Shown: positions 8,817 to 48,291 of the stretch, one piece after another
Layout: every line of letters begins with the position of its first letter
How positions within the stretch are numbered: position 1 is the first letter of the stretch
NCBI GenBank assembly: GCA_965198235.1
Contig: OZ240248.1
Span: 4,998,881-5,062,880 of the forward strand
Length of the DNA stretch: 64,000 nucleotides
Reading direction: 5' to 3'
Origin: Candidatus Poribacteria bacterium
GTDB taxonomy: Bacteria; Poribacteria; WGA-4E; WGA-3G
Notes under the pieces: model-generated
The model's database searches: none
Told to the model about the DNA's origin: nothing
What the model saw: only the letters and a program-made list of their open reading frames with translations
Translations under genes and position numbers: made by a program

Positions 8817-9497
8817 TCAATTCAGTGTTTCAATCCATTCACTGAGCACCCGTGCCATCTCTACGAAAACGTCTTCTTCCGTTTTGCGCGAGCGTTTTAG
8901 TACTTTGAACCCGTGATCCGCCGTATCCAGTAGATGTAAGGTCGCCTTGTCGCCAAGGTTTTCGCAGACTGGAGCTAACAGGTCGAGGACCGCCAATTTG
9001 TCGCGGGTACCGGACAGGAACAGCATCGGCACGGTAACATCGTCAAGATGCTCTGCGCGTTCCGTTCCCTCTCTTCCAGAAGGGTGTAGCGGGAAGGCGA
9101 AGAATACGAGACCTCGGACGTGTTCGATCGGGGCTTCTGCGGCTGTGAGCGAAGACATACGTCCACTATAGGAATGTCCCCCAACGAGAATTGATAAATT
9201 ATTGGCAGCCTCGTGTGCAGCTGCAACCGCAGATCGCACTGTTGCCAGAGCCACGGCTTGCGATTCCCTCCCACCGCCGCCACGTTCCATGTAAGGGAAC
9301 TGATAACGGAATGTGGCGATTCCTATATCTGCCAACCGTTCAGCGATTGTCTGGAGTGTTGAATGTCTCATAGTCGTACCTGCGCCGTGTCCGAGCACCA
9401 ACAGCCATTTCGCGTCGTCTGGAAGTATCAGTATTGAGGAGACCTCGCCTTTTTCTGGCGTTGCGATGAACTTCGATTCAATTGTTTCATAACTCAT
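8817..9497 (-). CDS. Alpha/beta hydrolase (COG3571/dienelactone-hydrolase-like)
   Basis: 226 aa. Nucleophile elbow GGHSYSG, LVLGHGAG near the N-terminus, and a C-terminal ADHGF His motif. Confidence 0.75.
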   Translation of the reverse strand: MSYETIESKFIATPEKGEVSSILILPDDAKWLLVLGHGAGTTMRHSTLQTIAERLADIGIATFRYQFPYMERGGGGRESQAVALATVRSAVAAAHEAANNLSILVGGHSYSGRMSSLTAAEAPIEHVRGLVFFAFPLHPSGREGTERAEHLDDVTVPMLFLSGTRDKLAVLDLLAPVCENLGDKATLHLLDTADHGFKVLKRSRKTEEDVFVEMARVLSEWIETLN

Positions 9498-25266: not shown

Positions 25267-28146
25267 ATGCAAAACGAGCAAAAAGATACTGTCTATATTA
25301 TTGATACGCACGCCGAAATATTTCGGGCGTATTACGCGATTCGTAGCGGATTGACGAGCAGCATCACCGGCGAGGCGACACATGCTGTGTTCGGGTTCGC
25401 TGGCACGCTTATTAGGATCTTGACGCAACTTCAGGCAAAATATATTGTCGCTGCGATTGATACACCGGGTAACACGTTTCGCAATGAACTTTATTCGGAA
25501 TACAAGGCGAATCGCTCTCCAGCACCTGATGATCTGGTGACACAGATTCATCGCATTCTGGAGCTGCTTGAGGCATTTGGTATCTTGACGCTCGGTAGAC
25601 CTGAATTGGAAGCGGATGACATCATCGCCTCTGTCACTCAGGCAATACTTGACGATCCGCAGGCATCTGATGTTGATGTCTCTATTATTTCTAAAGACAA
25701 AGACCTTGAACAGTTGCTCGGCGATCGGGTCACAATGCTTGATCTCCATAATGATAAGATTATCGATGTTCGGTCGCTGTGGGAAACGAAAGGCATAAAA
25801 CCTTCCCAGGTTGTTGATACCCTCGCCTTGATGGGAGATACTTCGGACAATGTACCGGGTGTTGAGAAAATCGGCTTGAAAACAGCGGCACAATTGATTC
25901 AGCAGTACGGTTCCGTTGAGGGTATTTTTCAGAACATCAATGAAATTAAAGGGAAGCGTCGCGAAAATTTGGAGAAGGCGCGTTCACAACTCGACCTTTC
26001 ACGAGAACTTGTAACCTTGAAGCGATATGCGGCTTTGGACTTCTCCATAGAGCAAGCACGGGTCAAACCACTTGATCTCCAGAAGATCCTCCCACTGTTC
26101 CAACAGTTAGAACTCAAGCGTTATGAGCAAGTTGTGACGGAGCTTGCGGGTGGAAAGTCTGCGTCCGCTGCTGCGCCTACGCCTGCAACGCGCAAGGAAC
26201 GGGTTGCGGAGTTAGCACAGAAAACGGATGCCATTTTGGACAAAGGCGACTACGGGACCGCTGAAACAGGGGACTATTCGGCGATCGTTACCCTCGACCA
26301 ACTGAAAGATCTCGTTGACACCCTATCCGCACAGGAGATTATTAGTTTTGATACTGAAACGGATGGCTTGGAACGTGAGGCGATGCTGTGTGGGTTAAGT
26401 TTCTCATGGAAACCGAAGCACGGCGTTTACGTGCCGGTTCGCTCGCCTCAACCTGAAGATCATTTAGATACCGATACCGTGCTTTCGGCACTTAAGCCGA
26501 TTTTGGAGAACCCCGCGCTATCAAAATGTGGGCATAATCTGAAGTTTGATGCCGGCATTCTTATCAGGAACGGTGTTAAACTCCAAGGGGCTGTTTTCGA
26601 TACGCTGCTCGCAAGTCAGTTAGTTGACGCGCGGACACCCTCCCACAACCTTGATACGTTGGCGTTGCTCCATTTAGAGCACAAGATGATCTCTTTTGAG
26701 GAACTAACAGCAGATCCGGGCGATGCGACGTCTGCTGACGAAGTGACGAATTTAGGTGGACTGTTTGAGGTGGAGGCAGGACAGCAGAAAACAATTGATG
26801 AAGTGCCATTGGAACAAGCCGCAATTTACGCCGCAGAGGATGCTGACATTACCCTCCGACTCTATTATTTCCTTACGCCAAAACTTGATGGGATGGGCAT
26901 CACGGCATTAGCGCGTGATATAGAGTCACCGCTCGCACCTATTCTCGCTGAAATGGAATATAACGGTATCGTTTGCGATAAGGAGGAACTCAGACGCCAA
27001 AGCAGTGTGATTAGCGAACTCGTTGATGCCCGGCAAAAGGAGATTCACGGAATCGTCGGATATCCGTGTAATATTGATTCACCGAGACAACTCGCGCAAG
27101 TGCTGTTTGATGAACTCGGTTTCAAACCCGTGAAACGGACGCGAGGCGGCAAGATTTCCACAGATGTGACTGTGTTAGAGGCACTCTCTCTGAGAGAGGA
27201 TATCAACGATCCGAAGACCAGCGTTCCACGTTTAATAATTGAGTACCGCCAATTCCGTAAGTTACAGAGTACTTATCTCGCTCAACTCCAGAATGCTGTT
27301 GACCCAAAAACAGAGCGTATCCACACACATCTTTATCAGTTAACAACAGCCACAGGGCGTTTGAAGTCCGACCACCCCAATCTACAGAACATTCCTGTCC
27401 GAACCGAGATTGGAAGGCAATTGCGACGTGCGTTCAAAGCACCCGATGGGCATCAGTTAATCTGTGCAGATTATTCACAGATTGAGCTTCGCATTCTCGC
27501 ACACTTTAGCGAAGATGAAAGTTTAATCGAGACATTCACCCAAGATTTGGATATCCATACAGCAGTTGCTTCGCAAGTGTTTGAGGTCCCGGCTGCCTCG
27601 GTTACGCGTGAACTTCGTGATAAGGCGAAAACTATCAATTTTGGTATCATTTACGGGGTTTCGCCAACAGGTCTCTCACGTCGGATTAAAGGGATGCGTG
27701 TAAAGGAAGCGGCTGCGCTTATTGATGATTATAAAACGCGTTTTCCGGGGATAGATCGGTTTCTGCAGCAGTGTGTCCAGCAGGCATCGGATCACGGGTA
27801 TGTTAGCACGCTCACCGGCAGGCGACGAGCAATTCCTGAAATCTATGCCACTAACCGTAGTCGGCGAAGCCTTGGCGAACGGTTGGCAATCAATACGGTA
27901 GTGCAAGGTTCTGCTGCAGATTTAATGAAGGCGGCGATGGTCCAGGTGCAGCGTCGTATTGATAAGGATAGACTTCCCTTGAAAATGCTTCTACAGATTC
28001 ATGATGAGTTAGTGCTTGAAACGCCAGAGGCACTCGCGGCGGCGCATGCCGCAATCGTCTGTGAAGAGATGGAGAATGCGATGTCGCTTCGGGTACCGCT
28101 TCGGACAGCAGCAGGAATCGGAGATAATTGGATGATCGCGAAGTGA
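25267..28146 (+). CDS. polA: DNA polymerase I
   Basis: 959 aa. 5'-nuclease domain, 3'-5' exonuclease region (FDTETDGL) and polymerase motifs (DYSQIELR, QGSAADL, QIHDELV). Confidence 0.95.
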   Translation: MQNEQKDTVYIIDTHAEIFRAYYAIRSGLTSSITGEATHAVFGFAGTLIRILTQLQAKYIVAAIDTPGNTFRNELYSEYKANRSPAPDDLVTQIHRILELLEAFGILTLGRPELEADDIIASVTQAILDDPQASDVDVSIISKDKDLEQLLGDRVTMLDLHNDKIIDVRSLWETKGIKPSQVVDTLALMGDTSDNVPGVEKIGLKTAAQLIQQYGSVEGIFQNINEIKGKRRENLEKARSQLDLSRELVTLKRYAALDFSIEQARVKPLDLQKILPLFQQLELKRYEQVVTELAGGKSASAAAPTPATRKERVAELAQKTDAILDKGDYGTAETGDYSAIVTLDQLKDLVDTLSAQEIISFDTETDGLEREAMLCGLSFSWKPKHGVYVPVRSPQPEDHLDTDTVLSALKPILENPALSKCGHNLKFDAGILIRNGVKLQGAVFDTLLASQLVDARTPSHNLDTLALLHLEHKMISFEELTADPGDATSADEVTNLGGLFEVEAGQQKTIDEVPLEQAAIYAAEDADITLRLYYFLTPKLDGMGITALARDIESPLAPILAEMEYNGIVCDKEELRRQSSVISELVDARQKEIHGIVGYPCNIDSPRQLAQVLFDELGFKPVKRTRGGKISTDVTVLEALSLREDINDPKTSVPRLIIEYRQFRKLQSTYLAQLQNAVDPKTERIHTHLYQLTTATGRLKSDHPNLQNIPVRTEIGRQLRRAFKAPDGHQLICADYSQIELRILAHFSEDESLIETFTQDLDIHTAVASQVFEVPAASVTRELRDKAKTINFGIIYGVSPTGLSRRIKGMRVKEAAALIDDYKTRFPGIDRFLQQCVQQASDHGYVSTLTGRRRAIPEIYATNRSRRSLGERLAINTVVQGSAADLMKAAMVQVQRRIDKDRLPLKMLLQIHDELVLETPEALAAAHAAIVCEEMENAMSLRVPLRTAAGIGDNWMIAK

Positions 28147-38490: not shown

Positions 38491-38645
38491 CTCGACGGAT
38501 AGCCTCTAATCCGCTGACCTTTGTGAAGGTGCATCCGAAAATGTGTATGAGTGGTAAAATTGAATCACTTTACTTACCCGACACTTTTCGCGGTAAAATT
38601 TCCGTGGAACCTGAAGCGGAATAGCTGCAGTAACGGAGGCAGATA

Positions 38646-40187
38646 GTGATAAACCTTTGTAATGTCCTAAATAGTTCGATACGTCTACAGGTGCAGGCAC
38701 ATTGGGAACCGATTGCGGATTCTACGTTTCGTATGCACAAGACATCGCCAGAACACGTTGAACTCTTCGATCTGTCACCAAACCATCCTGTCAAAGAATA
38801 CAGGACAGACGCTTTCAAGGCATTTCTTCCGTCATCAACTGTAGGGGTGGGTGATGTTTGGGAACTTGATCCGAACAGTGTTGTCTCTTTCCTGCGCCAG
38901 TTTCATTCCGGTGTGACCACACCCGTATATCACGGTGCGGAGGGTGCGTTCGCCTGCTTACGTGCTTTTTCGTCAGTTTACGCTGAGATTGTTTTCCGAA
39001 TTCATGCGGACTTCACGTTGGAAAGCGTCGCTTATGAGAAGTGGCGTGCCGCCAACGCCTCGGAGGACGACGATAATAAATCCCGTTTTGTCCCCTCCCA
39101 TTTCGTCGGACGATTGTTAATCAATTTGAAAGAAGGAACGGTTCGGGTGTTTTCGCTCTATCTGCCGGCACGCAATAGTAACGTTGTCATCAGTGCTTTT
39201 GGCGGTATTGATATGGTTTATGTGCCGCGTATGGAACTCCTCGCTACGGACGAGACCGACAAAGACGAGATCGCGTGGGATGCTGCTATTACAACGGAAG
39301 AGGCACACCGGATGTTGGAATTGAAGTTCTATAAATTCGCTGAGATTGATTGGCTACCGATTGATGAGGCAGTTGCACAGGCGAAAGCGACCAATCGTCC
39401 GATCCATGCAATCCTCGTCTGGGGGTGTTTAGACGATGAATCCTGCTGAGCGAACGGCAAATATTTGAGGGCGGGTCCGCTCTCCGATTCAGAAGTGATA
39501 ACAACGCTCAACGAGAAGTTTGTCAATACATGGGTGCTCCTCCGGGAATTGCCAGAACTAATAGGTGGTGCGAAAGGCGAGGCGGTCAGCCTCGTCGCAA
39601 AAGAGATAAAACGCCACTACACTGACTCTGTAGATATTCTGGCACTCACCCCCGATGCGGAAGTTATCATGCATCAGCCGGAGATGGCTCTACCGTACAG
39701 GAACCAGGCGCAAGCGTATCTAAAAGTGTTACAGCATGCTGTGGACGCATTTGAAGGGAGACGCACCCGTGTAGGCAACGCGTCAAAATTAGATCGGAAC
39801 CCGATCAGCTTGGGGACGGAGTTGATGGAGGTTTTACACGTTTTTAGCACATCCGACACCAATACCCCGACTTACACAGTTATTGAAATTGATACGACAC
39901 CGTTTGAACGCGGTGGGATCCTCCACATTGAAATACATGTGGGTGAGAACAGGTTGGCAGGAACGTTTGAATTGTTTGATGCAGATACCGAAATTTCTAC
40001 AAAAAATGATGAAGATGAAACTCTGGATGGTGCATGGAACGTTTCATCCGGTGGTGTAGGGCACATCTTTCACGATTTTAGTCGGGGTCGGCGTTTCAAG
40101 TTAGTCGCTACAGGGGCAAACAACCAAAAGAGTGTTTCCAATGCTTTTCTGGCACGTGTCTCTATCGTCCCACCGTTTGAAAAATAG
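38646..40187 (+). CDS. Candidate selenoprotein A: unknown N-domain, thioredoxin-like fold with C-U motif (TGA 39447-39449 read as Sec), beta-rich C-domain
   Basis: ORFs 38646-39449 and 39465-40187 share a frame and are separated only by one TGA. The junction reads ..PIHAILVWGCLDDESC-U-ANGKYLRAGPLSDSEVITTLNEKFVNTWV. The second half has no SD or ATG. GTG start after GGAGG, and no signal peptide. Confidence 0.6.
39467..39484 (+). promoter_or_regulatory. SECIS-like hairpin 17 nt downstream of TGA (locus A)
   Basis: GAGGGCG-GGTC-CGCTCTC: 7 bp including one G-U pair, with apical loop GGUC. Confidence 0.45.
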
Positions 40188-40477: not shown

Positions 40478-41518
40478 ATGAAACATAAGTCGGTTTCTCC
40501 TTTTTTAGGAGTTGGAGGCTGCACCAAATTTCTAATATTCAGTTATGCTATCAGTGCCCTACTCATGTTCAGCGGCAGCACTGCTGTATGGGCAAAAGCC
40601 CCGGAGACAGCGAAAATTACATTTATGTCAAAGCGGGACGGTAACGCTGAGATCTATATCATGAACCCCGACGGGAGTGAGCAAGTCAATCTCACCCAAC
40701 ATCGTGCAGCCGATTATACACCAGCCTGGTCGCCAAACGGGAAACAGATATTGTTCAGCTCAGATCGAGATGGAATTTTTGATTTGTATCTTATGGACGC
40801 AGATGGCACAAATGTCCGGAAGGTGTTCGCAAGCAGCAAATACAGATGGGAGCCTGCCTGGTCGCCCGATGGTAAACGAATTGCCTATGCACAAGGAGAT
40901 CCAGGAAAGGCAAAACTACAGTTTGGGTTACGATTTGTCCCTTACGCCGATCTCACACTTTACATCGCAACACTAAATGGAGACTCCGTTGAGAAATTGA
41001 CGGATGGATTTGGTCCGAGTTGGTCTCCTGATGGACACGAGATAGCCTTTGTGGTGGGTGGTCGCAAAAGTACACTACTGGGTATTTACGACTTGAGGAA
41101 ACGTTCCCAAAAAACGCTCATCTCAAAGAAGATGCCGTGGATATTTGATCCCAGCTGGTCTGCACAGGGTGACAGAATAGCTTTCGCGAAACTCGAGGGT
41201 GCTGCGTTTGATGCACAAGGTTTTCTTAGGTTTAAGAAGGGTACGATTTACACCATAGATAGTGCTGGGGGTGGACTTCATCAGATTACCGACGAGAACT
41301 CTTCTGACCCAACCTGGTCCCCAGATGGCAGCGAACTCATTTACAACTCTCGGGTGGGTTTTTCGCAACTCTTCAGAACGGGCTTGAACGGCGACAATCC
41401 AACACAACTGACGCATGACGGAAGTAATTTGAGTCCAGATTGGTTTGACCCCTTTTATAGCGTTTCGCCGTCGGCGCAATTGTTAACGACGATGTGGGGA
41501 AAAATCAAAGTGGATTAA
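40478..41518 (+). CDS. Exported PD40/TolB-like beta-propeller protein with TTW-type tail
   Basis: Signal peptide. Repeated (P)xWSPDG/NG blades. Tail [15 protein letters not shown]. Confidence 0.8.
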
Positions 41519-41607
41519 GTTAACTATAAATCGTTCCAGATTCAGGGCAGTGAATGCCTTTTGCTTCCAATTGTCAAAATTTATTCCCAGATTTTCATTT
41601 TTTTTCA

Positions 41608-41650
41608 GAATTAGGCAACCGTTTTTCCGATCCTCCGCGTCACTATATAT
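41608..41650 (+). promoter_or_regulatory. ECF-type promoter motif P2
   Basis: GAATTAGGCAACC..CCGCGTCACTATATAT. AAC ends at 41619 and CGTC is at 41638-41641 (18-nt spacer). Confidence 0.5.
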
Positions 41651-41714
41651 CAACACGATATTTGTGTGACAAATTTTGGAAGATTCAAATGACTCCATAG
41701 GAGGAAGCGAAAAC

Positions 41715-42536
41715 ATGTTACGGACATTTACTGCTGCTTTTTCGAGTGTCATTATGCTATTGCTGGCAGCTTCTGCCAACGCGGGTTTGGATGAAGATCT
41801 CGTTTTTTATCTGACCTTTGATAACGTTAAAAATCAGACGATTATTGATGAATCTGGCAATGGTCTTGATGCAGAAATACTTGAGCATGTCGAGATTGTC
41901 AAGGGTAAATATGGAGATGCAATCCGTCTTAAAGGTCAAAGCGGGGATTGCGTTAATATCCCTGCTCAAGAGAAATTGAAAGTTATAGGCGAGATAACAA
42001 TGATGGCATGGATTTATTCTCCAGAAACATGGAACAACGAGAAGATGCATTGGCTGGAAAAAGATTGTCATTTCGTTGTTCCGATTGGTTGGGCGCACTG
42101 TTACGGTATCGCTGGTGTTGATGTCGGTAACGGACCAGAAATCTTTTTGTTTTTGGGATCACAGGTAGAGGGGAAATGGGACCGGCAGGAGTTCAGAACT
42201 CCACATAAAATGGGCGAAAAAAAATGGCATCACGTTGTCGGAAGTTACGATGGCGAAACCATGAAAATCTATGTGGATGGTACAGTCATAGGGGAAGAAA
42301 AGAAAAAATTCAATTTCTTTGGAGACAATGACGCGGACGTTCGGATCGGATGTGCAAAAGATGTCCCCCACCTTACATTCACAAACGGCTCTATTGATGA
42401 AGCTGCGGTCTGGCAACGAGCACTGAGTGATGATGAAATTAAACAAGCCATGACAGGGAACTTTCTCGCTGTTTCGCCGAGCGATAAAGTGGCGACGACT
42501 TGGGCGGATATGAAAAGAAGAGCAGTCGTTCCTTAA
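41715..42536 (+). CDS. Exported LamG-like domain protein with TTW-type tail
   Basis: Start set to the ATG at 41715 by comparison with the paralog at 43790 (RBS AGGAGGA). LVFYLTFDNVKNQT..DESGNG and IDEAAVWQRALSDDEIKQAM. Tail SDKVATTWADMKRRAVVP. Confidence 0.75.
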   Translation: MLRTFTAAFSSVIMLLLAASANAGLDEDLVFYLTFDNVKNQTIIDESGNGLDAEILEHVEIVKGKYGDAIRLKGQSGDCVNIPAQEKLKVIGEITMMAWIYSPETWNNEKMHWLEKDCHFVVPIGWAHCYGIAGVDVGNGPEIFLFLGSQVEGKWDRQEFRTPHKMGEKKWHHVVGSYDGETMKIYVDGTVIGEEKKKFNFFGDNDADVRIGCAKDVPHLTFTNGSIDEAAVWQRALSDDEIKQAMTGNFLAVSPSDKVATTWADMKRRAVVP

Positions 42537-42579
42537 CGGCTACCTGCAAAGTCAGAATTTCCCCATAAAGGAATGTAGG

Positions 42580-43602
42580 ATGAAAACAATACGGTTGTTA
42601 GTTTTTGCCATATTGAACATATTGATGCTGAACGTAAGCGTTTGCCTCGCTTTCGCAACAGCACCCACAACCGCCAAAATTCTGTTCACCTCTTCACGGG
42701 ACGGCAATTATGAGGTCTACATCATGAATCCGGACGGTAGTGAACAGGTGAATTTAACACAACATCGCGCAAATGATTTTCAAGCCGTATGGTCCCCCAC
42801 TGGGGAGCAGATTCTTTTTGTCTCCGATCGCGATGGCGGCATCCGAGACTTGTATCTGATGGACCCCAGTGGATCCAATGTCCGACGCGTTTTCACGAGG
42901 AAACGAAAGTCTTATAGGGATTCTCCGACGTGGGCACCCGATGGCAACCAGATTGCTTACGTACACCTGAATTGGAACGGTGTCAGGTTCCATATCTACG
43001 TTGCAATCTTGGGTAAACAAAAAGAGGAACACCTCGTTGAGGGTAGACGTCCGACGTGGTCACCCGATGGAACGAAAATAGCATATATGTCTTATATTGT
43101 AGATACCTGCCGAATTGCTCTTATTGACCCCCACACACGAAGGCAAAAACACCTCCTATCGAGGAAAGCAACGCCTTGGCAAAATCATCCATTTTGGTCG
43201 GCTACGGGGAGCAAACTCGCTTTTTCTTGGAATAAGAATCCGTTACCGCGCCTTTTGCCGGGTGATCGTTTCCCATCCGTATGGCTGGATAAGGAGACAA
43301 TCTATATTGTGAACAGCGACGGGACCGATCTCCGAGAACTTCTGGATGAAGCTGGGCCCAGAGCACAGTATCCAGTGTTGTCGCCAGACGGGAAAGAGGT
43401 ACTTTATACACAAGAAATTAAGGGTCGCCTACAAATTTTCAAACTTGATGTACACAGTGCCACTCGGGCACAGTTGACAAATATCGGGCGAGTCTTTGAG
43501 GCGAATTTCGGAGGGGATTGGTTCGATCCTGTGTATTCGTTGCCTGTTTCGCCACAATCGCGACTGCTAAGCACAGTATGGGGAAAAGTAAAAAAGAAAT
43601 AG
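42580..43602 (+). CDS. Exported PD40/TolB-like beta-propeller protein with TTW-type tail (paralog)
   Basis: Signal peptide and WSP(T/D)G repeats. Tail QSRLLSTVWGKVKKK. Confidence 0.8.
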   Translation: MKTIRLLVFAILNILMLNVSVCLAFATAPTTAKILFTSSRDGNYEVYIMNPDGSEQVNLTQHRANDFQAVWSPTGEQILFVSDRDGGIRDLYLMDPSGSNVRRVFTRKRKSYRDSPTWAPDGNQIAYVHLNWNGVRFHIYVAILGKQKEEHLVEGRRPTWSPDGTKIAYMSYIVDTCRIALIDPHTRRQKHLLSRKATPWQNHPFWSATGSKLAFSWNKNPLPRLLPGDRFPSVWLDKETIYIVNSDGTDLRELLDEAGPRAQYPVLSPDGKEVLYTQEIKGRLQIFKLDVHSATRAQLTNIGRVFEANFGGDWFDPVYSLPVSPQSRLLSTVWGKVKKK

Positions 43603-43682
43603 TGTCATAGGTAGAATCACCATGAAACTGCTGTGTTATGCACGTTTTCCGCTTTGTGTATCATATTTTCTTTATGTTTGCA

Positions 43683-43725
43683 GAATTAGGCAACCGTTTT
43701 GTCTGTCTCCCGCGTCATTATATAT
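43683..43725 (+). promoter_or_regulatory. ECF-type promoter motif P3
   Basis: GAATTAGGCAACC..CCGCGTCATTATATAT. CGTC is at 43713-43716 with an 18-nt spacer. The downstream leader is nearly identical to that after P2. Confidence 0.5.
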
Positions 43726-43789
43726 CGATACGATAGCTGTGTGACAAATTTTAGAAAGTTCAAATGACTCTATAGGAGGAACAGAAAAC

Positions 43790-44611
43790 ATGTTACGGAC
43801 ATTTATTGCTGCTTTTTCGAGTGTCGTTATACTGTTGTTGGCAGCTCCTGCCAACGCAGGTTTGAATGAGAAACTCGTTTTTTATCTGACGTTTGATAAT
43901 GTTAAAGATCAGACAGTTGTTGACGAATCTGGGAATGGTCAGGACGCAGAGATACTTGAGAACACCGAGATTGTCAGGGGCAAATATGGGAATGCCATTC
44001 ATATTACAGATGATGGTCAGGATTGCGTCAGTATTCCTTCTCAGGAAAAACTGAAAATTACAAGCGAAATAACAATGATGACCTGGATTTATTATCAAGA
44101 AACATGGAAAGGCAAAAGGATGTTGCATTGGCTTGATAAAGGCTGCCATTCGGGAGACGGTTGGGCTGGAACTTACGGTATCGGCAGTTCCGATATCGGT
44201 AACGGACCAGAGATTGTGTTGTTTTTCGGGTCGCGGGAGAAACAGGGGATTACGGACCGGCATGAATTCGCAGTTCTACACAAAATGGGTGTTCAAAAAT
44301 GGCATCATGTTGCTGGGAGCTACGATGGGAAAACCATGAAAATTTATTTAGATGGTAAAGTCATAGGTGCGGAAAAGAAGAATTTCAATCTCTTTGGTGG
44401 TAATAACGTGAACCTCAGGATCGGATGCGCAAAAAACAGCCCGCAGTATGCATTTGCCAACGGTTCTATTGACGAAGCCGCAGTCTGGCAACGAGCATTG
44501 AGTGATGATGAAATCAAGCAGGCGATGGTAGGGGACTTCCTCGCTGTTTCACCGAGTGATAAAGTTGCAACGACTTGGGCGGATGTGAAAAAGAGGATGA
44601 TAGCCCGTTAG
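43790..44611 (+). CDS. Exported LamG-like domain protein with TTW-type tail (paralog of 41715-42536)
   Basis: About 70% identical by eye to 41715-42536. Tail SDKVATTWADVKKRMIAR. Confidence 0.75.
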   Translation: MLRTFIAAFSSVVILLLAAPANAGLNEKLVFYLTFDNVKDQTVVDESGNGQDAEILENTEIVRGKYGNAIHITDDGQDCVSIPSQEKLKITSEITMMTWIYYQETWKGKRMLHWLDKGCHSGDGWAGTYGIGSSDIGNGPEIVLFFGSREKQGITDRHEFAVLHKMGVQKWHHVAGSYDGKTMKIYLDGKVIGAEKKNFNLFGGNNVNLRIGCAKNSPQYAFANGSIDEAAVWQRALSDDEIKQAMVGDFLAVSPSDKVATTWADVKKRMIAR

Positions 44612-45186: not shown

Positions 45187-46866
45187 ATGAAAATCTTAAC
45201 CGTTGGGTTTCTTATTCTGGTAATGATGAGTGGAGTGCTGAATGCCGATAACCACTCAACAACTCACAACAAAATTACACTGAACCTTGACGGGACCCCA
45301 GAAGTATCTGTCAAAGGCTTCATTGCTCCGATTGAATATACACAATACAATTTCCATGTGGAGTGGGATGAACTGGCAAATCTGCGGGTTGCTGAGCCGG
45401 AGAAGCGGTATTCTGCATCGGTTTTCCATGCCTTTCTGCCCTCCGAAGCGGTTTCTGTAGGCGATCTCTGGCAGATTGAGGAAGAGGGGGTGCTAGAATT
45501 ACTAAGGCAACTGAACCCCAATCCGAGGCTGGACCTGGACATCAATATGGGAGATTCCCGTGGACTGTGGGCATGTCTGCGCGCCTACAATGATGAATTT
45601 GCTAAGATTGTGTTCCGCATCCATGCAGAATTCGTCTTAAACGATGGTCGGTTCACTCCATCTCAGTTTACAGGACATCTTGTTATTGATCGAATTAGAG
45701 AGAGGATTGCCTCCTTCAAGATGTATGTTCCTGAAGGTGTACTGAATTTTGATGTCGGGCGAAACAGTATCGGAGCTATAGATGTCGGTTTTTGCCCGCA
45801 AATGGAACTCCGTGCTAAGGCACCAGAAGTGGTATCGGACATCAAGTTTGCGGAGTCCATCACCCAAGAAGCGGCTGAGCGGGTGCTGATACTGCGTTTC
45901 TACAGATCGCAACAAATCAACTGGGTGTCTCTGGAAGAAGCGTTAGAGACGGCACCGGCGCAACGAAAACCTGTTCATGTTGTTTCGATAGATGGACCGC
46001 TTGCGGATGAGTCGTGCTGAGGGAGTGGCAAAACTCTGAGGGCAGTTGTCCTCTCTGACGATAAAATTATAGAGTTCTTGAACGAAAACTTTGTTAACAC
46101 ATGGGTGCCGAATTCTGAATTAGGGCGCGTCTCCAGTTTGCGGGAGCCGATTGACAAGAGACGCGAGCGCGAAGGTAAAACGTTTGACACAAGCCACGCC
46201 TTGGCACAAGCAATTATAAAGGGTTGGAAAGAGGGGTCGCCTGTGGATTGTCTGGTTATCTCGCCGGAGTTTGAAGTGATGGGTAGGCAACCTGTCAACG
46301 AAATCGGGTGGTCCAACGGAGTAGCATTTTACATGAATTTCCTCCAAGAGTCCTTAGAGGGGAAACTACCAGGGTTCGGTGAGGCCGCCTCGAAACCTTT
46401 ACCGAAACCTAGTTCAGAGTCTTACTCTGGATTAGGTGCTGTTGTGCCAGAGGATTTAAAAGTTATACTCACCCGTGAAAAGCCCCAGCAGGAAGTTCTC
46501 AGCATTTTCCGGACACCAGAATCCGGCTATCAAGATTATACTGTCGTTGAAATTGATACGACAGCGTTTAAAGGCGGCGGTATGCTTACTATTGATATCT
46601 TAGTAGGAAGTGCTGAATCCAAAGGCTCGTTCGATCTTTATGATGGTGACACTGAACTTCCAACACAAGGTATGCCTCGCGGCGCGCTTACCTCTGCGTG
46701 GGATGTTCCTCCCGGTAAAAGAGGAACAATCAAGTATCGTTTTGACCGGGGTAAAGTTTTTAAGTTAGGAGCTACAGGCAGTTGGTTCAGTAAGGAAGGG
46801 AACATCAACGCTTTTCTCGCTACAATTTCTGTAGCCCCTATGGCGAAAGAAAGTAACGAACATTAA
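45187..46866 (+). CDS. Candidate selenoprotein B (exported): unknown N-domain, thioredoxin-like fold with C-U motif (TGA 46018-46020 read as Sec), beta-rich C-domain
   Basis: ORFs 45181-46020 and 46078-46866 share a frame with only one TGA and no other stop between them. The junction reads ..PVHVVSIDGPLADESC-U-GSGKTLRAVVLSDDKIIEFLNENFVNTWV. ATG at 45187 after AAGGAG. Signal peptide MKILTVGFLILVMMSGVLNA. Confidence 0.6.
46038..46053 (+). promoter_or_regulatory. SECIS-like hairpin 17 nt downstream of TGA (locus B)
   Basis: GAGGGC-AGTT-GTCCTC: 6 bp including one G-U pair, with G and U in the apical loop. Same offset from the TGA as in locus A. Confidence 0.4.
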
Positions 46867-46962: not shown

Positions 46963-48291
46963 ATGAAAAACGACGATGTCGAATTAATTCAAGGCAGTCT
47001 TATAGGCGATGAAAAAGCCTTTGCGAAGTTGGTGAGAAAATACCAGAAGCAGGTTCACGCACTCGCGTGGCGGAAAGTAGGCGATTTCCACATCGCTGAA
47101 GAGATTACGCAGGATACCTTTTTAAGGGTTTATAAGAAACTGGCAACGCTGAAGGATCCGCATCGTTTTGCAGGATGGCTTTATAGAATCGCTGCACGCC
47201 AATGCCATGCCTGGCTCAGAAAGAAACGGATGCAAACGCAATCGCTTGAAGACACAGACATCGAACTGATAGAGGGAGGGACGTATTCTCAATACATTGC
47301 CGAGGAGCAGGAGAAAGCTGCGGTAGATGCGCAACGCGATATTGTCCAAAGGTTACTCGCTCGGCTGCAGGAAAGTGAACGCACTGTCGTCACACTCCAC
47401 TACTTCGGGGAGATGACCTGTGAAGAGATTAGCCGATTTTTGGGTGTATCAGAGAGTACCGTTAAGAGTCGGCTCCGCCGTGCGCGGCACCGCTTAAAGA
47501 AGGCGGAACCCATGATCCGAGAGGCACTGGAAGGCTTCCAAGTTAGGGCGAATCTCACCGAGAATATCATGCAAGAAATTGCCCGTATCAAACCTACTCC
47601 ACCGCCCAGTGGTAAACCGTTTGTGCCGTGGACAATTGCCGCCTCAACCCTTGTTCTCGTTGTGATGGCACTTGGAGCAAGTAGTCAGTACTTAACACGT
47701 TTCCAACAACCTTACAATTTTGATGCCACATCCGAAATGACAGTAGAACTCATTGACACGCCTATGGTTCTGAATCTCGCATCGAAACCGGATGTGCGGA
47801 CCCAAGCCGGTAAATCTGTGACACCGAGTAAAGGCGACGGACATACCCCGAGCACAAATCAATCAGAATATGTGCCGAGATTTCTTTCTGCCCAAGCAAA
47901 GAACGTCGTGCTTGATAATAAACAGCCTTCGCAGGATGTTTTGAGCATTTTCCAAACACCGGCGGCGGGCTATCAAGACTACACTGTCATTGAGATTGAT
48001 ACGACGGCATTTAAAGATGGCGGCACGGTCACTATCGACCTTTGGATTGGGAGCGCAGAGGCTGCTGGTGCTTTCATTCTGTTTACAAGCGACAGCGAAA
48101 TCCCCACAGACAGTATGCCTAAGGTTATACTCACCTCAGCATCAGGAATCATACCCGGTAAATCAGGGCGGATCACGCACCGTTTTGACGAAGGCACACG
48201 CTTTAAGTTAGGAGCTACCGGTAATTCGTTCAGTGGGGAAGGGAAGGTCAATTCCTTTCTCGCAAAAATCTCTATAGACGCTACGTTGTGA
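46963..48291 (+). CDS. ECF sigma factor fused via one TM helix to an extracytoplasmic domain homologous to the selenoprotein C-domain
   Basis: Region 2 (ITQDTFLRVYKKL..FAGWLYRIAARQCHAWLRKK) and region 4 (ERTVVTLHYFGEMTCEEISRFLGVSESTVKSRLRRARHRLKK). TM helix WTIAASTLVLVVMALGASS. C-terminal ..DVLSIFQTPAAGYQDYTVIEIDTTAFKDGG..FKLGATG..NSFLAKISI parallels 46490-46850. Confidence 0.8.
   Translation: MKNDDVELIQGSLIGDEKAFAKLVRKYQKQVHALAWRKVGDFHIAEEITQDTFLRVYKKLATLKDPHRFAGWLYRIAARQCHAWLRKKRMQTQSLEDTDIELIEGGTYSQYIAEEQEKAAVDAQRDIVQRLLARLQESERTVVTLHYFGEMTCEEISRFLGVSESTVKSRLRRARHRLKKAEPMIREALEGFQVRANLTENIMQEIARIKPTPPPSGKPFVPWTIAASTLVLVVMALGASSQYLTRFQQPYNFDATSEMTVELIDTPMVLNLASKPDVRTQAGKSVTPSKGDGHTPSTNQSEYVPRFLSAQAKNVVLDNKQPSQDVLSIFQTPAAGYQDYTVIEIDTTAFKDGGTVTIDLWIGSAEAAGAFILFTSDSEIPTDSMPKVILTSASGIIPGKSGRITHRFDEGTRFKLGATGNSFSGEGKVNSFLAKISIDATL

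Follow-up and report, generated by a model that had tools for sequence, protein, structure and literature searches.

Does the TGA at positions 39447–39449 of this stretch of Candidatus Poribacteria DNA end one gene shortly before a second begins, or is it translated as an amino acid within a single protein? The question arises at Locus A, on the forward strand of a 64-kb window (by which we mean the whole stretch of 64,000 nucleotides that was analyzed), where a reading made from the letters alone, hereafter the sequence-only reading, had assigned the codon to selenocysteine (Sec) in a thioredoxin-like fold. We predict that UGA 39447–39449 is recoded as Sec inside a single thioredoxin-fold protein, and we put the probability of this at roughly 0.88. 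The assignment is strongly supported by the presence of TGA in 89 of 90 homologous junctions, by the continuity of the coding frame across it, by a conserved downstream hairpin, and by homologs that carry Cys in its place.

A single reading frame at Locus A

Read directly from the sequence, an open reading frame (ORF) of 267 aa (38646–39449) is in frame with a second ORF that runs from TTG 39465 to the stop codon TAG 40185–40187, and between them stand TGA 39447–39449 and five sense codons, ANGKY (39450–39464). Gene callers leave these five codons as intergenic sequence; we take them to be part of the protein. The upstream frame ends in ..VWGCLDDESC (in fuller form, ILVWGCLDDESC), and its last residue, Cys267 (TGC, 39444–39446), directly precedes the TGA. 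Read-through gives a product of 267 + 1 + 245 = 513 residues in which the UGA is codon 268. The GTG start codon at 38646 has a Shine–Dalgarno (SD) sequence, GGAGG (38635–38639, forward strand), 6 nt on its 5′ side, and no SD-like motif stands ahead of TTG 39465. Two same-frame ORFs split by a TGA and five sense codons, the second with a TTG start only and without an SD sequence, are what the sequence-only reading had described, and the DNA bears this out. The read-through translation, the conserved junction, and the full-length Cys homologs together point to a single selenoprotein gene of 513 codons (38646–40187, forward strand), with Sec predicted at codon 268 and TAG as its stop.

At other sites in the window, TGA acts as a normal stop codon. 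The DNA_pol_A profile match ends at 380/381, three residues ahead of TGA 28144–28146, and TGA 700–702 closes a CTP-synthase-type GATase domain; the domain ends agree with the sequence-only reading, which had named these two codons, in polA and pyrG, as normal stops. Overall, TGA terminates 15 of the 51 long open frames in the window. Because TGA serves as a normal stop for PolA and CTP synthase, global recoding is excluded.

Conservation across the junction

To compare the junction among relatives, we used 80 genome loci, retained out of 149 confirmed matches; almost all are labeled as Poribacteria metagenome-assembled genomes (MAGs). These loci contain 87 junctions, of which 86 have TGA directly after the Cys and the remaining one has TGG. 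Three further junctions, from Locus B (the other family member present in the window), a Planctomycetes MAG, and another high-GC MAG, bring the counts to 89 TGA and one TGG among 90. The preceding residue is Cys in all 90. Across the junction the consensus reads ..D(D/A)ESC-U-xxGKx(L/F)RxxxLS..LN..FVN, and in the 87 junctions of the 80 loci the downstream frame is open and conserved as (A/G)(N/S/T)GKx(L/F)R(A/T/V)(G/V)(P/V)LS...LN..FVN.

Protein databases hold this family in halves. About 76 relatives of 280–300 aa span just the N-terminal 52% of the fused query (with U written as C), and the N-terminal-type relatives that we inspected all finish in ..D(D/A)ESC, with the exception of P0069, which diverges ≈15 residues earlier. 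Counted together, ≈90 database homologs of the N-terminal part stop at ..ESC. A second set opens with MRAGPLSS..LLNTHFVNVWVLL, the downstream half as gene callers see it, and (M/L)RAGPLS is where the majority of the C-terminal homologs start. Where a source is named, these entries are labeled as hypothetical proteins of Candidatus Poribacteria. In one further relative, P0002 (374 aa), an internal deletion has fused the first third of the N-terminal domain directly with the stretch that follows the Sec site; the entry may be an assembly chimera or a copy that has decayed.

Among the sequences seen, the site codes for the predicted Sec in 89, for Cys in two, and for Trp in two. The sequence-only reading had raised the question of whether full-length homologs align a Cys with the UGA. 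Just two came to light when the C-terminal half was searched exhaustively with HMMER and one of the resulting matches then served as a new query. P0266 is a complete single chain of 410 aa with a signal peptide; its junction reads ..LCDESC-C-GSGKALRAGPLS.. with the Cys codon TGT at the TGA position. P0227 is likewise a single polypeptide, with TGC at that position. The Trp forms (TGG) are found in locus L012 (10805–10807) and in P0130.

These replacements bear on the possibility that the UGA is recoded to an amino acid other than Sec, either to Cys through a SelB-dependent tRNA of the tRNA(ReC) type or to Trp through near-cognate suppression. A tRNA(ReC) that reads UGA with a selenocysteine insertion sequence (SECIS) as Cys is documented and occurs in some Sec-using MAGs (PMC13582414), and the two Cys and two Trp relatives indicate that both residues are tolerated at least occasionally. 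Against Cys stands the retention of TGA itself: one transversion, to either TGC or TGT, would be enough for Cys with no special machinery, and the codon has nevertheless stayed TGA in 89/90 junctions, which argues that the encoded residue is not Cys. In the available text of PMC13582414, no tRNA(ReC) is given for the Poribacteria entry. As for Trp, the conserved Gly-Lys that follows the site is missing from P0130 as well, suggestive of decay more than of an equivalence of Trp with Sec, and L012 keeps an intact hairpin, which suggests that its Trp codon is a recent change or a base-call error. Recoding to either residue is, on this balance, improbable.

Less credible still is a true stop at the TGA, which would yield polypeptides of 267 and ≈240 aa, the second by re-initiation at TTG 39465, that come together as a split thioredoxin-like domain. 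Gene callers and the NCBI annotation do treat all relatives in this way, and codon +6 is TTG in 71/90 junctions. The codons between the TGA and the TTG are nevertheless kept as protein (x-x-G-K-x, with Gly+3 and Lys+4 each in 89/90), whereas codon +6 is a non-start codon (TTC, TTT, CTG, or TTA) in 17/90. In those 17 junctions the next possible start lies 16–61 codons downstream, within conserved secondary-structure elements, and an SD-like motif stands ahead of codon +6 in only 9/90 junctions overall. A split at this point would cut the thioredoxin fold between β1 and α1, and the natural Cys forms are single chains. The frequency of non-start codons at +6 and the scarcity of SD-like motifs make the two-gene reading untenable; the homologs are not pairs of separate genes with their own ribosome-binding sites, as the sequence-only reading had allowed that they might be. 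Finally, although one base change turns TGC, TGT, or TGG into TGA and MAG assemblies do contain errors, a nonsense mutation of a Cys or Trp codon, whether in a pseudogene or through an assembly or sequencing error, is effectively refuted by the comparative data, in which TGA recurs in 89 independent junctions from dozens of MAGs and one single-cell genome (WGA-3G), spanning 47–71% GC, with both flanks under purifying selection.

A SECIS-like hairpin follows the UGA

The sequence-only reading had pointed to a hairpin, GAGGGCG-GGUC-CGCUCUC, beginning 17 nt after the TGA. This SECIS-like apical hairpin (39467–39484, forward strand), with a 7-bp stem (GAGGGCG/CGCUCUC) and a GGUC loop, is indeed included in the minimum-free-energy (MFE) fold. 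In the published bacterial SECIS model the loop lies ≈16–37 nt from the UGA. Across the family, each of the 87 junctions folded has a stem of at least 6 bp whose start lies 20 nt from the UGA's first base, and the apical loop, which is GGUC in 59, AGGU in 17, and AGUU in 11, begins 24 nt after the UGA with its G and U conserved. Bacterial SECIS elements are described as stem-loops shortly 3′ of the UGA with a small apical loop that contains G (PMC1088965), and the family hairpin has this form. The 24-nt hairpin windows fold with a mean energy of −10.1 kcal/mol, as against −2.2 ± 2.2 kcal/mol for 3,029 control windows of the same size taken elsewhere in the same genes, of which 0.6% reach −10.

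When 82 sequences are aligned, 91.6% of the cells of the 7-bp stem are paired, whereas controls in which the whole structure was slid along the alignment give 36–62%. Two-sided changes occur at three stem pairs: G-C to C-G or the reverse in five sequences, C-G and U-A in two, and G-C and A-U in 25. These changes alter the encoded peptide, which appears as RAGP, RTGV, RAVV, or RVGP, and in one subclass (..GAGGACAGGUGUCCUC..) the 3′ arm is displaced by two nucleotides. The structure of the hairpin is conserved more than its register. The hairpin to which the sequence-only reading had pointed is stable and recurs in all 87 junctions folded, with compensatory changes and, as set out next, frozen synonymous sites.

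Codon choice within the hairpin is nearly invariant. Gly+9 is GGT in 78/78 sequences (entropy 0 bits, compared with 1.6–2.0 for other invariant Gly), Leu+11 is CTC in 88/89 (0.09 bits, compared with 1.7–2.5 for other Leu), and Pro+10 is CCG in 58/61 (0.33 bits, compared with ≈2.0 for other Pro). Arg+7 uses AGR only (0.93 bits), whereas CGN occurs at Arg −17 and Arg +32. The stem-loop is nucleotide-identical even in genomes of 69–71% GC whose proteins share ≈38% identity. The freeze extends to the codons beside the UGA (39444–39461), with TGC for Cys−1 in 87/90, GCG for Ala+1 in 49/51, and AAA for Lys+4 in 89/89 (0 bits, compared with ≈0.9 for other Lys); because codon choice is frozen right next to the UGA, a context or spacer requirement beyond the hairpin is suggested. 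The two Cys forms preserve the RAGPL peptide but encode it with different codons; their hairpin lacks the loop U and is weaker, with 24-nt folds of −7.4 and −7.6 kcal/mol.

An extended SECIS is possible. A candidate outer helix, UGAGCG (39447–39452) with CGCUCA (39505–39510), would enclose the hairpin (39447–39510, forward strand). Its pairs are formed in 91.7% of cells, and Leu+20, in the same region, is CTC in 88%. The pairs are mostly invariant, which makes the covariation evidence weak, and one is broken in 38/82 sequences; we propose this helix only tentatively.

A probable thioredoxin-fold domain with a predicted Cys–Sec dyad

The predicted 513-aa product comprises three domains, with approximate boundaries: an N-terminal β-rich domain (≈aa 1–214; 38646–39287), a thioredoxin-fold domain that bears the Cys267–Sec268 dyad (≈aa 215–385; 39288–39800), and a C-terminal domain of ≈125 aa (..YTVIEIDTTPFERGGILHIEIHVG..; 39801–40184). 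The fold assignment of the central domain rests on a model of a homolog, the natural Cys form P0266, in place of the window protein itself. AlphaFold2 (AF2) models the homologous domain (P0266 residues 245–410) with a predicted local distance difference test (pLDDT) score of 84 and a predicted template modeling (pTM) score of 0.80, in the topology β1-α1-β2-α2-β3-β4-α3. A Foldseek search with this model returns 7tkv (E = 3.3e-5), 3ira (4.1e-4), and 3ph9 (AGR3) and 2ju5 (both 4.6e-4), followed by classical thioredoxins; the top matches are all thioredoxin-fold proteins at probability 1.00, led by the DsbH/DUF255/AGR group. These neighbors support the DUF255/Thioredoxin_7-type fold that the sequence-only reading had recognized, even though the profile matches are weak. 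Thioredoxin_7 gives a sub-threshold Pfam match that spans the junction, and PF03190 and PF13899 match 6/21 and 5/21 family members, respectively, at E ≤ 0.1. By sequence, the domain is a distant relative of these families and not a Pfam member. The fused protein has no NCBIfam match except a spurious one, and NF041199 gives no match at E ≤ 1.

The N-terminal domain is modeled in P0266 (residues 35–290, homologous to window positions 38646–39287) at a pLDDT above 90. Searches of Pfam and NCBIfam gave no match to it, and Foldseek gave no neighbor in the PDB (best E = 0.19, TM below 0.15).

We infer that Cys267–Sec268 is the redox center and that it occupies the usual place of CxxC in such folds, between β1 and the first helix. 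The family motif is C-U-(A/G)-x-G-K, which differs from the CxxC or CxxS found at the N terminus of helix α1 in related proteins, and in an alignment to 3ira a loop insertion of ≈6 residues (LDDES) precedes the dyad. L(T/S)P, a candidate counterpart of the cis-Pro that precedes β3 in this group, is conserved ahead of the predicted β3 in most Sec forms; in the two Cys forms the Pro is replaced by Ser or Lys. Because Gly stands in for the second CxxC cysteine, the dyad would be expected to cycle through a vicinal selenenylsulfide; a single selenolate nucleophile aided by the neighboring thiol is a likely alternative to this vicinal selenenylsulfide/selenol–thiol couple. Either way, the product of Locus A is likely to be a thiol-disulfide or peroxide oxidoreductase.

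Proposed decoding of the UGA and weight of the evidence

By analogy with E. coli fdhF, UGA 39447–39449 would be decoded as Sec by the standard bacterial route. The hairpin at 39467–39484 would serve as the SECIS, its GGUC loop 24 nt from the UGA, and is predicted to recruit SelB-GTP-Sec-tRNA(Sec) to a ribosome with the UGA in its A site. The resulting protein, with a DsbH/DUF255/Thioredoxin_7-type domain between its β-rich and C-terminal domains, would then alternate at Cys267–Sec268 between a selenol/thiol pair and a vicinal selenenylsulfide. The conservation pattern expected of an fdhF-like recoding mechanism is present in the family; SelB-dependent delivery of Sec at the UGA we infer from that analogy.

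The genome of Ca. Poribacteria WGA-3G, from which the TGA-carrying locus L057 derives, is listed with COGs for SelA (two), SelB (one), and SelD (one) (PMC5649159 Table S4), and PMC13582414 places Poribacteria among the phyla with Sec-type [NiFeSe] hydrogenases.

Several observations weigh against the Sec assignment or against parts of it. Neither the window nor the related loci (1.6 Mb) yielded genes for tRNA-Sec, selA, selB, or selD when searched by ARAGORN (window and 60 loci) and by tblastn with E. coli SelA, SelB, and SelD (window and 80 loci); this null is uninformative, since each sel gene takes up one locus in a genome of ≈5.5 Mb. No Rfam family matches the hairpin, either in a scan of the window at gathering thresholds or in a permissive scan of 39380–39580, a result that is again uninformative because bacterial SECIS elements are poorly covered by Rfam. 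A 71-nt segment around the Locus A hairpin folds no better than shuffled sequence (z = −0.19), and a single fold thus proves nothing. The stem is partly dictated by the Ala-Gly-Pro codons, and one Cys form retains a 6-bp remnant, so the structural contrast between Sec and Cys forms is partial (n = 2). With regard to the fold, the Thioredox_DsbH match, which spans the junction, has E = 5e-4 and 20.4 bits against a gathering cut-off of 27. Because the dyad loop falls below a pLDDT of 50 in the P0266 domain model, the placement of the dyad relative to the helix N terminus is not established. The sequence-only reading had equated U with the first Cys of the classical motif and Gly with the second; in a profile alignment to 3ira (DUF255) the two Cys of CHWC do fall opposite U and Gly, respectively, but at E = 0.49 and for the same low-confidence loop, which leaves this part of the reading provisional.

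As a separate observation, ARAGORN returned no tRNA genes of any kind in the 60 loci (L001–L060, ≈1.2 Mb), which is below bacterial expectation and may be a property of its multi-source mode.

Locus B and the wider family

A second family member, Locus B (45187–46866, forward strand), lies 5 kb downstream of Locus A. Its three domains are arranged as in Locus A, and it carries a signal peptide; it has the junction ..PLADESC-U-GSGKTLRAVVLS.., an in-frame UGA predicted to encode Sec (46018–46020), and a SECIS-like hairpin, GAGGGC-AGUU-GUCCUC (46038–46053), at the same 20-nt offset and of a variant seen in 11 other junctions. Locus A lacks a signal peptide and is flanked by a GH32 hydrolase gene on one side and by PD40 and Laminin_G_3 genes on the other; between the two loci, at 40478–44611, stand two tandem copies of a pair made up of a PD40 β-propeller gene and, after it, a Laminin_G_3 gene.

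Poribacteria genomes often hold two to four family members, and members also occur in Planctomycetes. Some copies stand in tandem arrays (two junctions each in L020, L024, L027, and L030, and three in L034), and others are dispersed on the same chromosome, for example three in OY764016.1. The C-terminal domain is common to Loci A and B and has no Pfam family; as a domain of ≈120 aa (39801–40184 and 46480–46863) with the pattern ..YTVxEIDTTxF..GGxLxIxIxVG..FxLxDG.., it recurs in many otherwise different proteins of 200–900 aa, such as P0143 and P0155, among the representative proteins searched. In some paralogs (loci such as L053, L057, and L065, of whose kind P0077 and P0083 are the C-terminal halves) the Sec domain is followed by TPR-like repeats and an AhpC/TSA-redoxin domain that has SGFC or NGFC in place of CxxC. 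The single Cys of that domain could partner the Cys–Sec dyad.

A gene for an extracytoplasmic function (ECF) sigma factor (46963–48291, forward strand; Pfam Sigma70_r2, Sigma70_r4, and Sigma70_ECF) lies 97 nt downstream of Locus B. Across the family, an ECF sigma factor is fused through a transmembrane segment or located within 1.5 kb in 13/88 genes, compared with ≈6% expected from gene density. The linked loci are L049, L063, L067, L079, and L080 (starts near 9059) and L026, L029, L033, L037, and L058. In the fusions the sigma factor is N-terminal and joined through the transmembrane segment (a 576-aa N-terminal part, also in P0071 and P0074); in other cases the sigma gene lies 100–440 nt downstream of a family member. 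The association is limited to the Locus B type and the fused subfamilies, and we rejected such a link for Locus A.

A bolder interpretation would make the family an almost obligately selenium-dependent thioredoxin-fold module, with the Cys–Sec dyad as its sole center, and its ECF-linked branch, whether tethered to the sigma factor or encoded beside it, an extracytoplasmic selenium redox sensor that controls transcription. We hold this to be unlikely; if true, it would be the first signaling system of the sigma/anti-sigma type with a selenocysteine sensor.

Significance of the family

Public annotation cuts every member of this family at the TGA into two hypothetical proteins. Recognizing the predicted recoding would restore more than 150 genes in Poribacteria and their relatives and would add a family to the prokaryotic selenoproteome. 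Its unusual traits are a Cys–Sec dyad in a thioredoxin fold without the second cysteine of the CxxC motif, the near-exclusive use of Sec, and several paralogs per genome, and taken together these imply a substantial demand for selenium in widespread sponge symbionts. The family also offers a natural system in which vicinal selenenylsulfide chemistry can be compared with CxxC chemistry within one fold. The fusions with ECF sigma factors suggest, in addition, that envelope signaling may be linked to selenium redox chemistry in a way that can be tested.

Comparison with known systems

Typical thioredoxin-fold selenoprotein families are said to be dominated by Cys forms, whereas in this family the Sec forms exceed the Cys forms, 89 to 2 among the sequences seen. 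The family resembles the known bacterial selenoproteins of this fold (Sec-Trx, Sec-Grx, a thiol:disulfide interchange protein, and DsbA/DsbG-like proteins, with UxxC; listed in PMC13188914): a UGA within the ORF is followed by a SECIS hairpin, Sec occupies the position of the redox motif, and Cys homologs exist. Unlike the UxxC selenoproteins, the family carries the motif C-U-x-x-G, with a vicinal upstream Cys and without a Cys three residues downstream, and it is further set apart by a 215-aa N-terminal domain, variable C-terminal domains, and the lack of an NCBIfam match. The nearest inventory entry is the Trx7/PDZ selenoprotein from Global Ocean Sampling (GOS) metagenomes (NF041199; Thioredoxin_7; CxxU; PMC13188914, PMC9312934); PMC13188914 lists no other prokaryotic selenoprotein whose fold is of the Thioredoxin_7 type. 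In the Trx7/PDZ protein, however, Sec replaces the second Cys and a PDZ domain is present, and our family shows neither an NF041199 match nor the CxxU motif.

The best structural neighbors of the modeled domain, the DUF255/Thioredox_DsbH and AGR2/AGR3 proteins (7tkv, 3ira, 2ju5, and 3ph9), differ in that they use Cys only, as CxxC or, in the AGR proteins, CxxS. With respect to the RNA element, the SECIS of E. coli fdhF is likewise a hairpin directly 3′ of the UGA within the ORF. Its apical loop is GGUC. Unlike it, the family hairpin has no identified bulged U in the upper stem, its stem sequence is family-specific, and it has no Rfam match.

An adjacent Cys–Sec pair also occurs in the GCUG motif of mammalian thioredoxin reductase (TrxR), where it forms an eight-membered selenenylsulfide ring. 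The sequence-only reading had drawn this parallel, and the resemblance would be chemical only, without homology: GCUG stands at the extreme C terminus of a flavoprotein, a pyridine-nucleotide disulfide oxidoreductase, whereas the dyad studied here is internal (267–268 of 513) in a protein with no flavoprotein domain. Bacterial Cys–Sec dyads are known from SaoL, SaoC, HgcA, CopZ-like form 2, and KCU-star (PMC13188914). Their folds and that of TrxR, which comprise a flavoprotein C-terminal tail and MerB-like, corrinoid, and ferredoxin-like folds, are unrelated to the family.

The 2026 inventory of 119 prokaryotic selenoprotein families contains no thioredoxin-fold family with a Cys–Sec dyad (PMC13188914), and the literature searched yielded no publication linking Poribacteria with this family. 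Because the family is absent from that inventory, because the nearest entry differs from it, and because no paper ties it to Poribacteria, we classify the Locus A family as a selenoprotein family that is new but belongs to a well-established kind.

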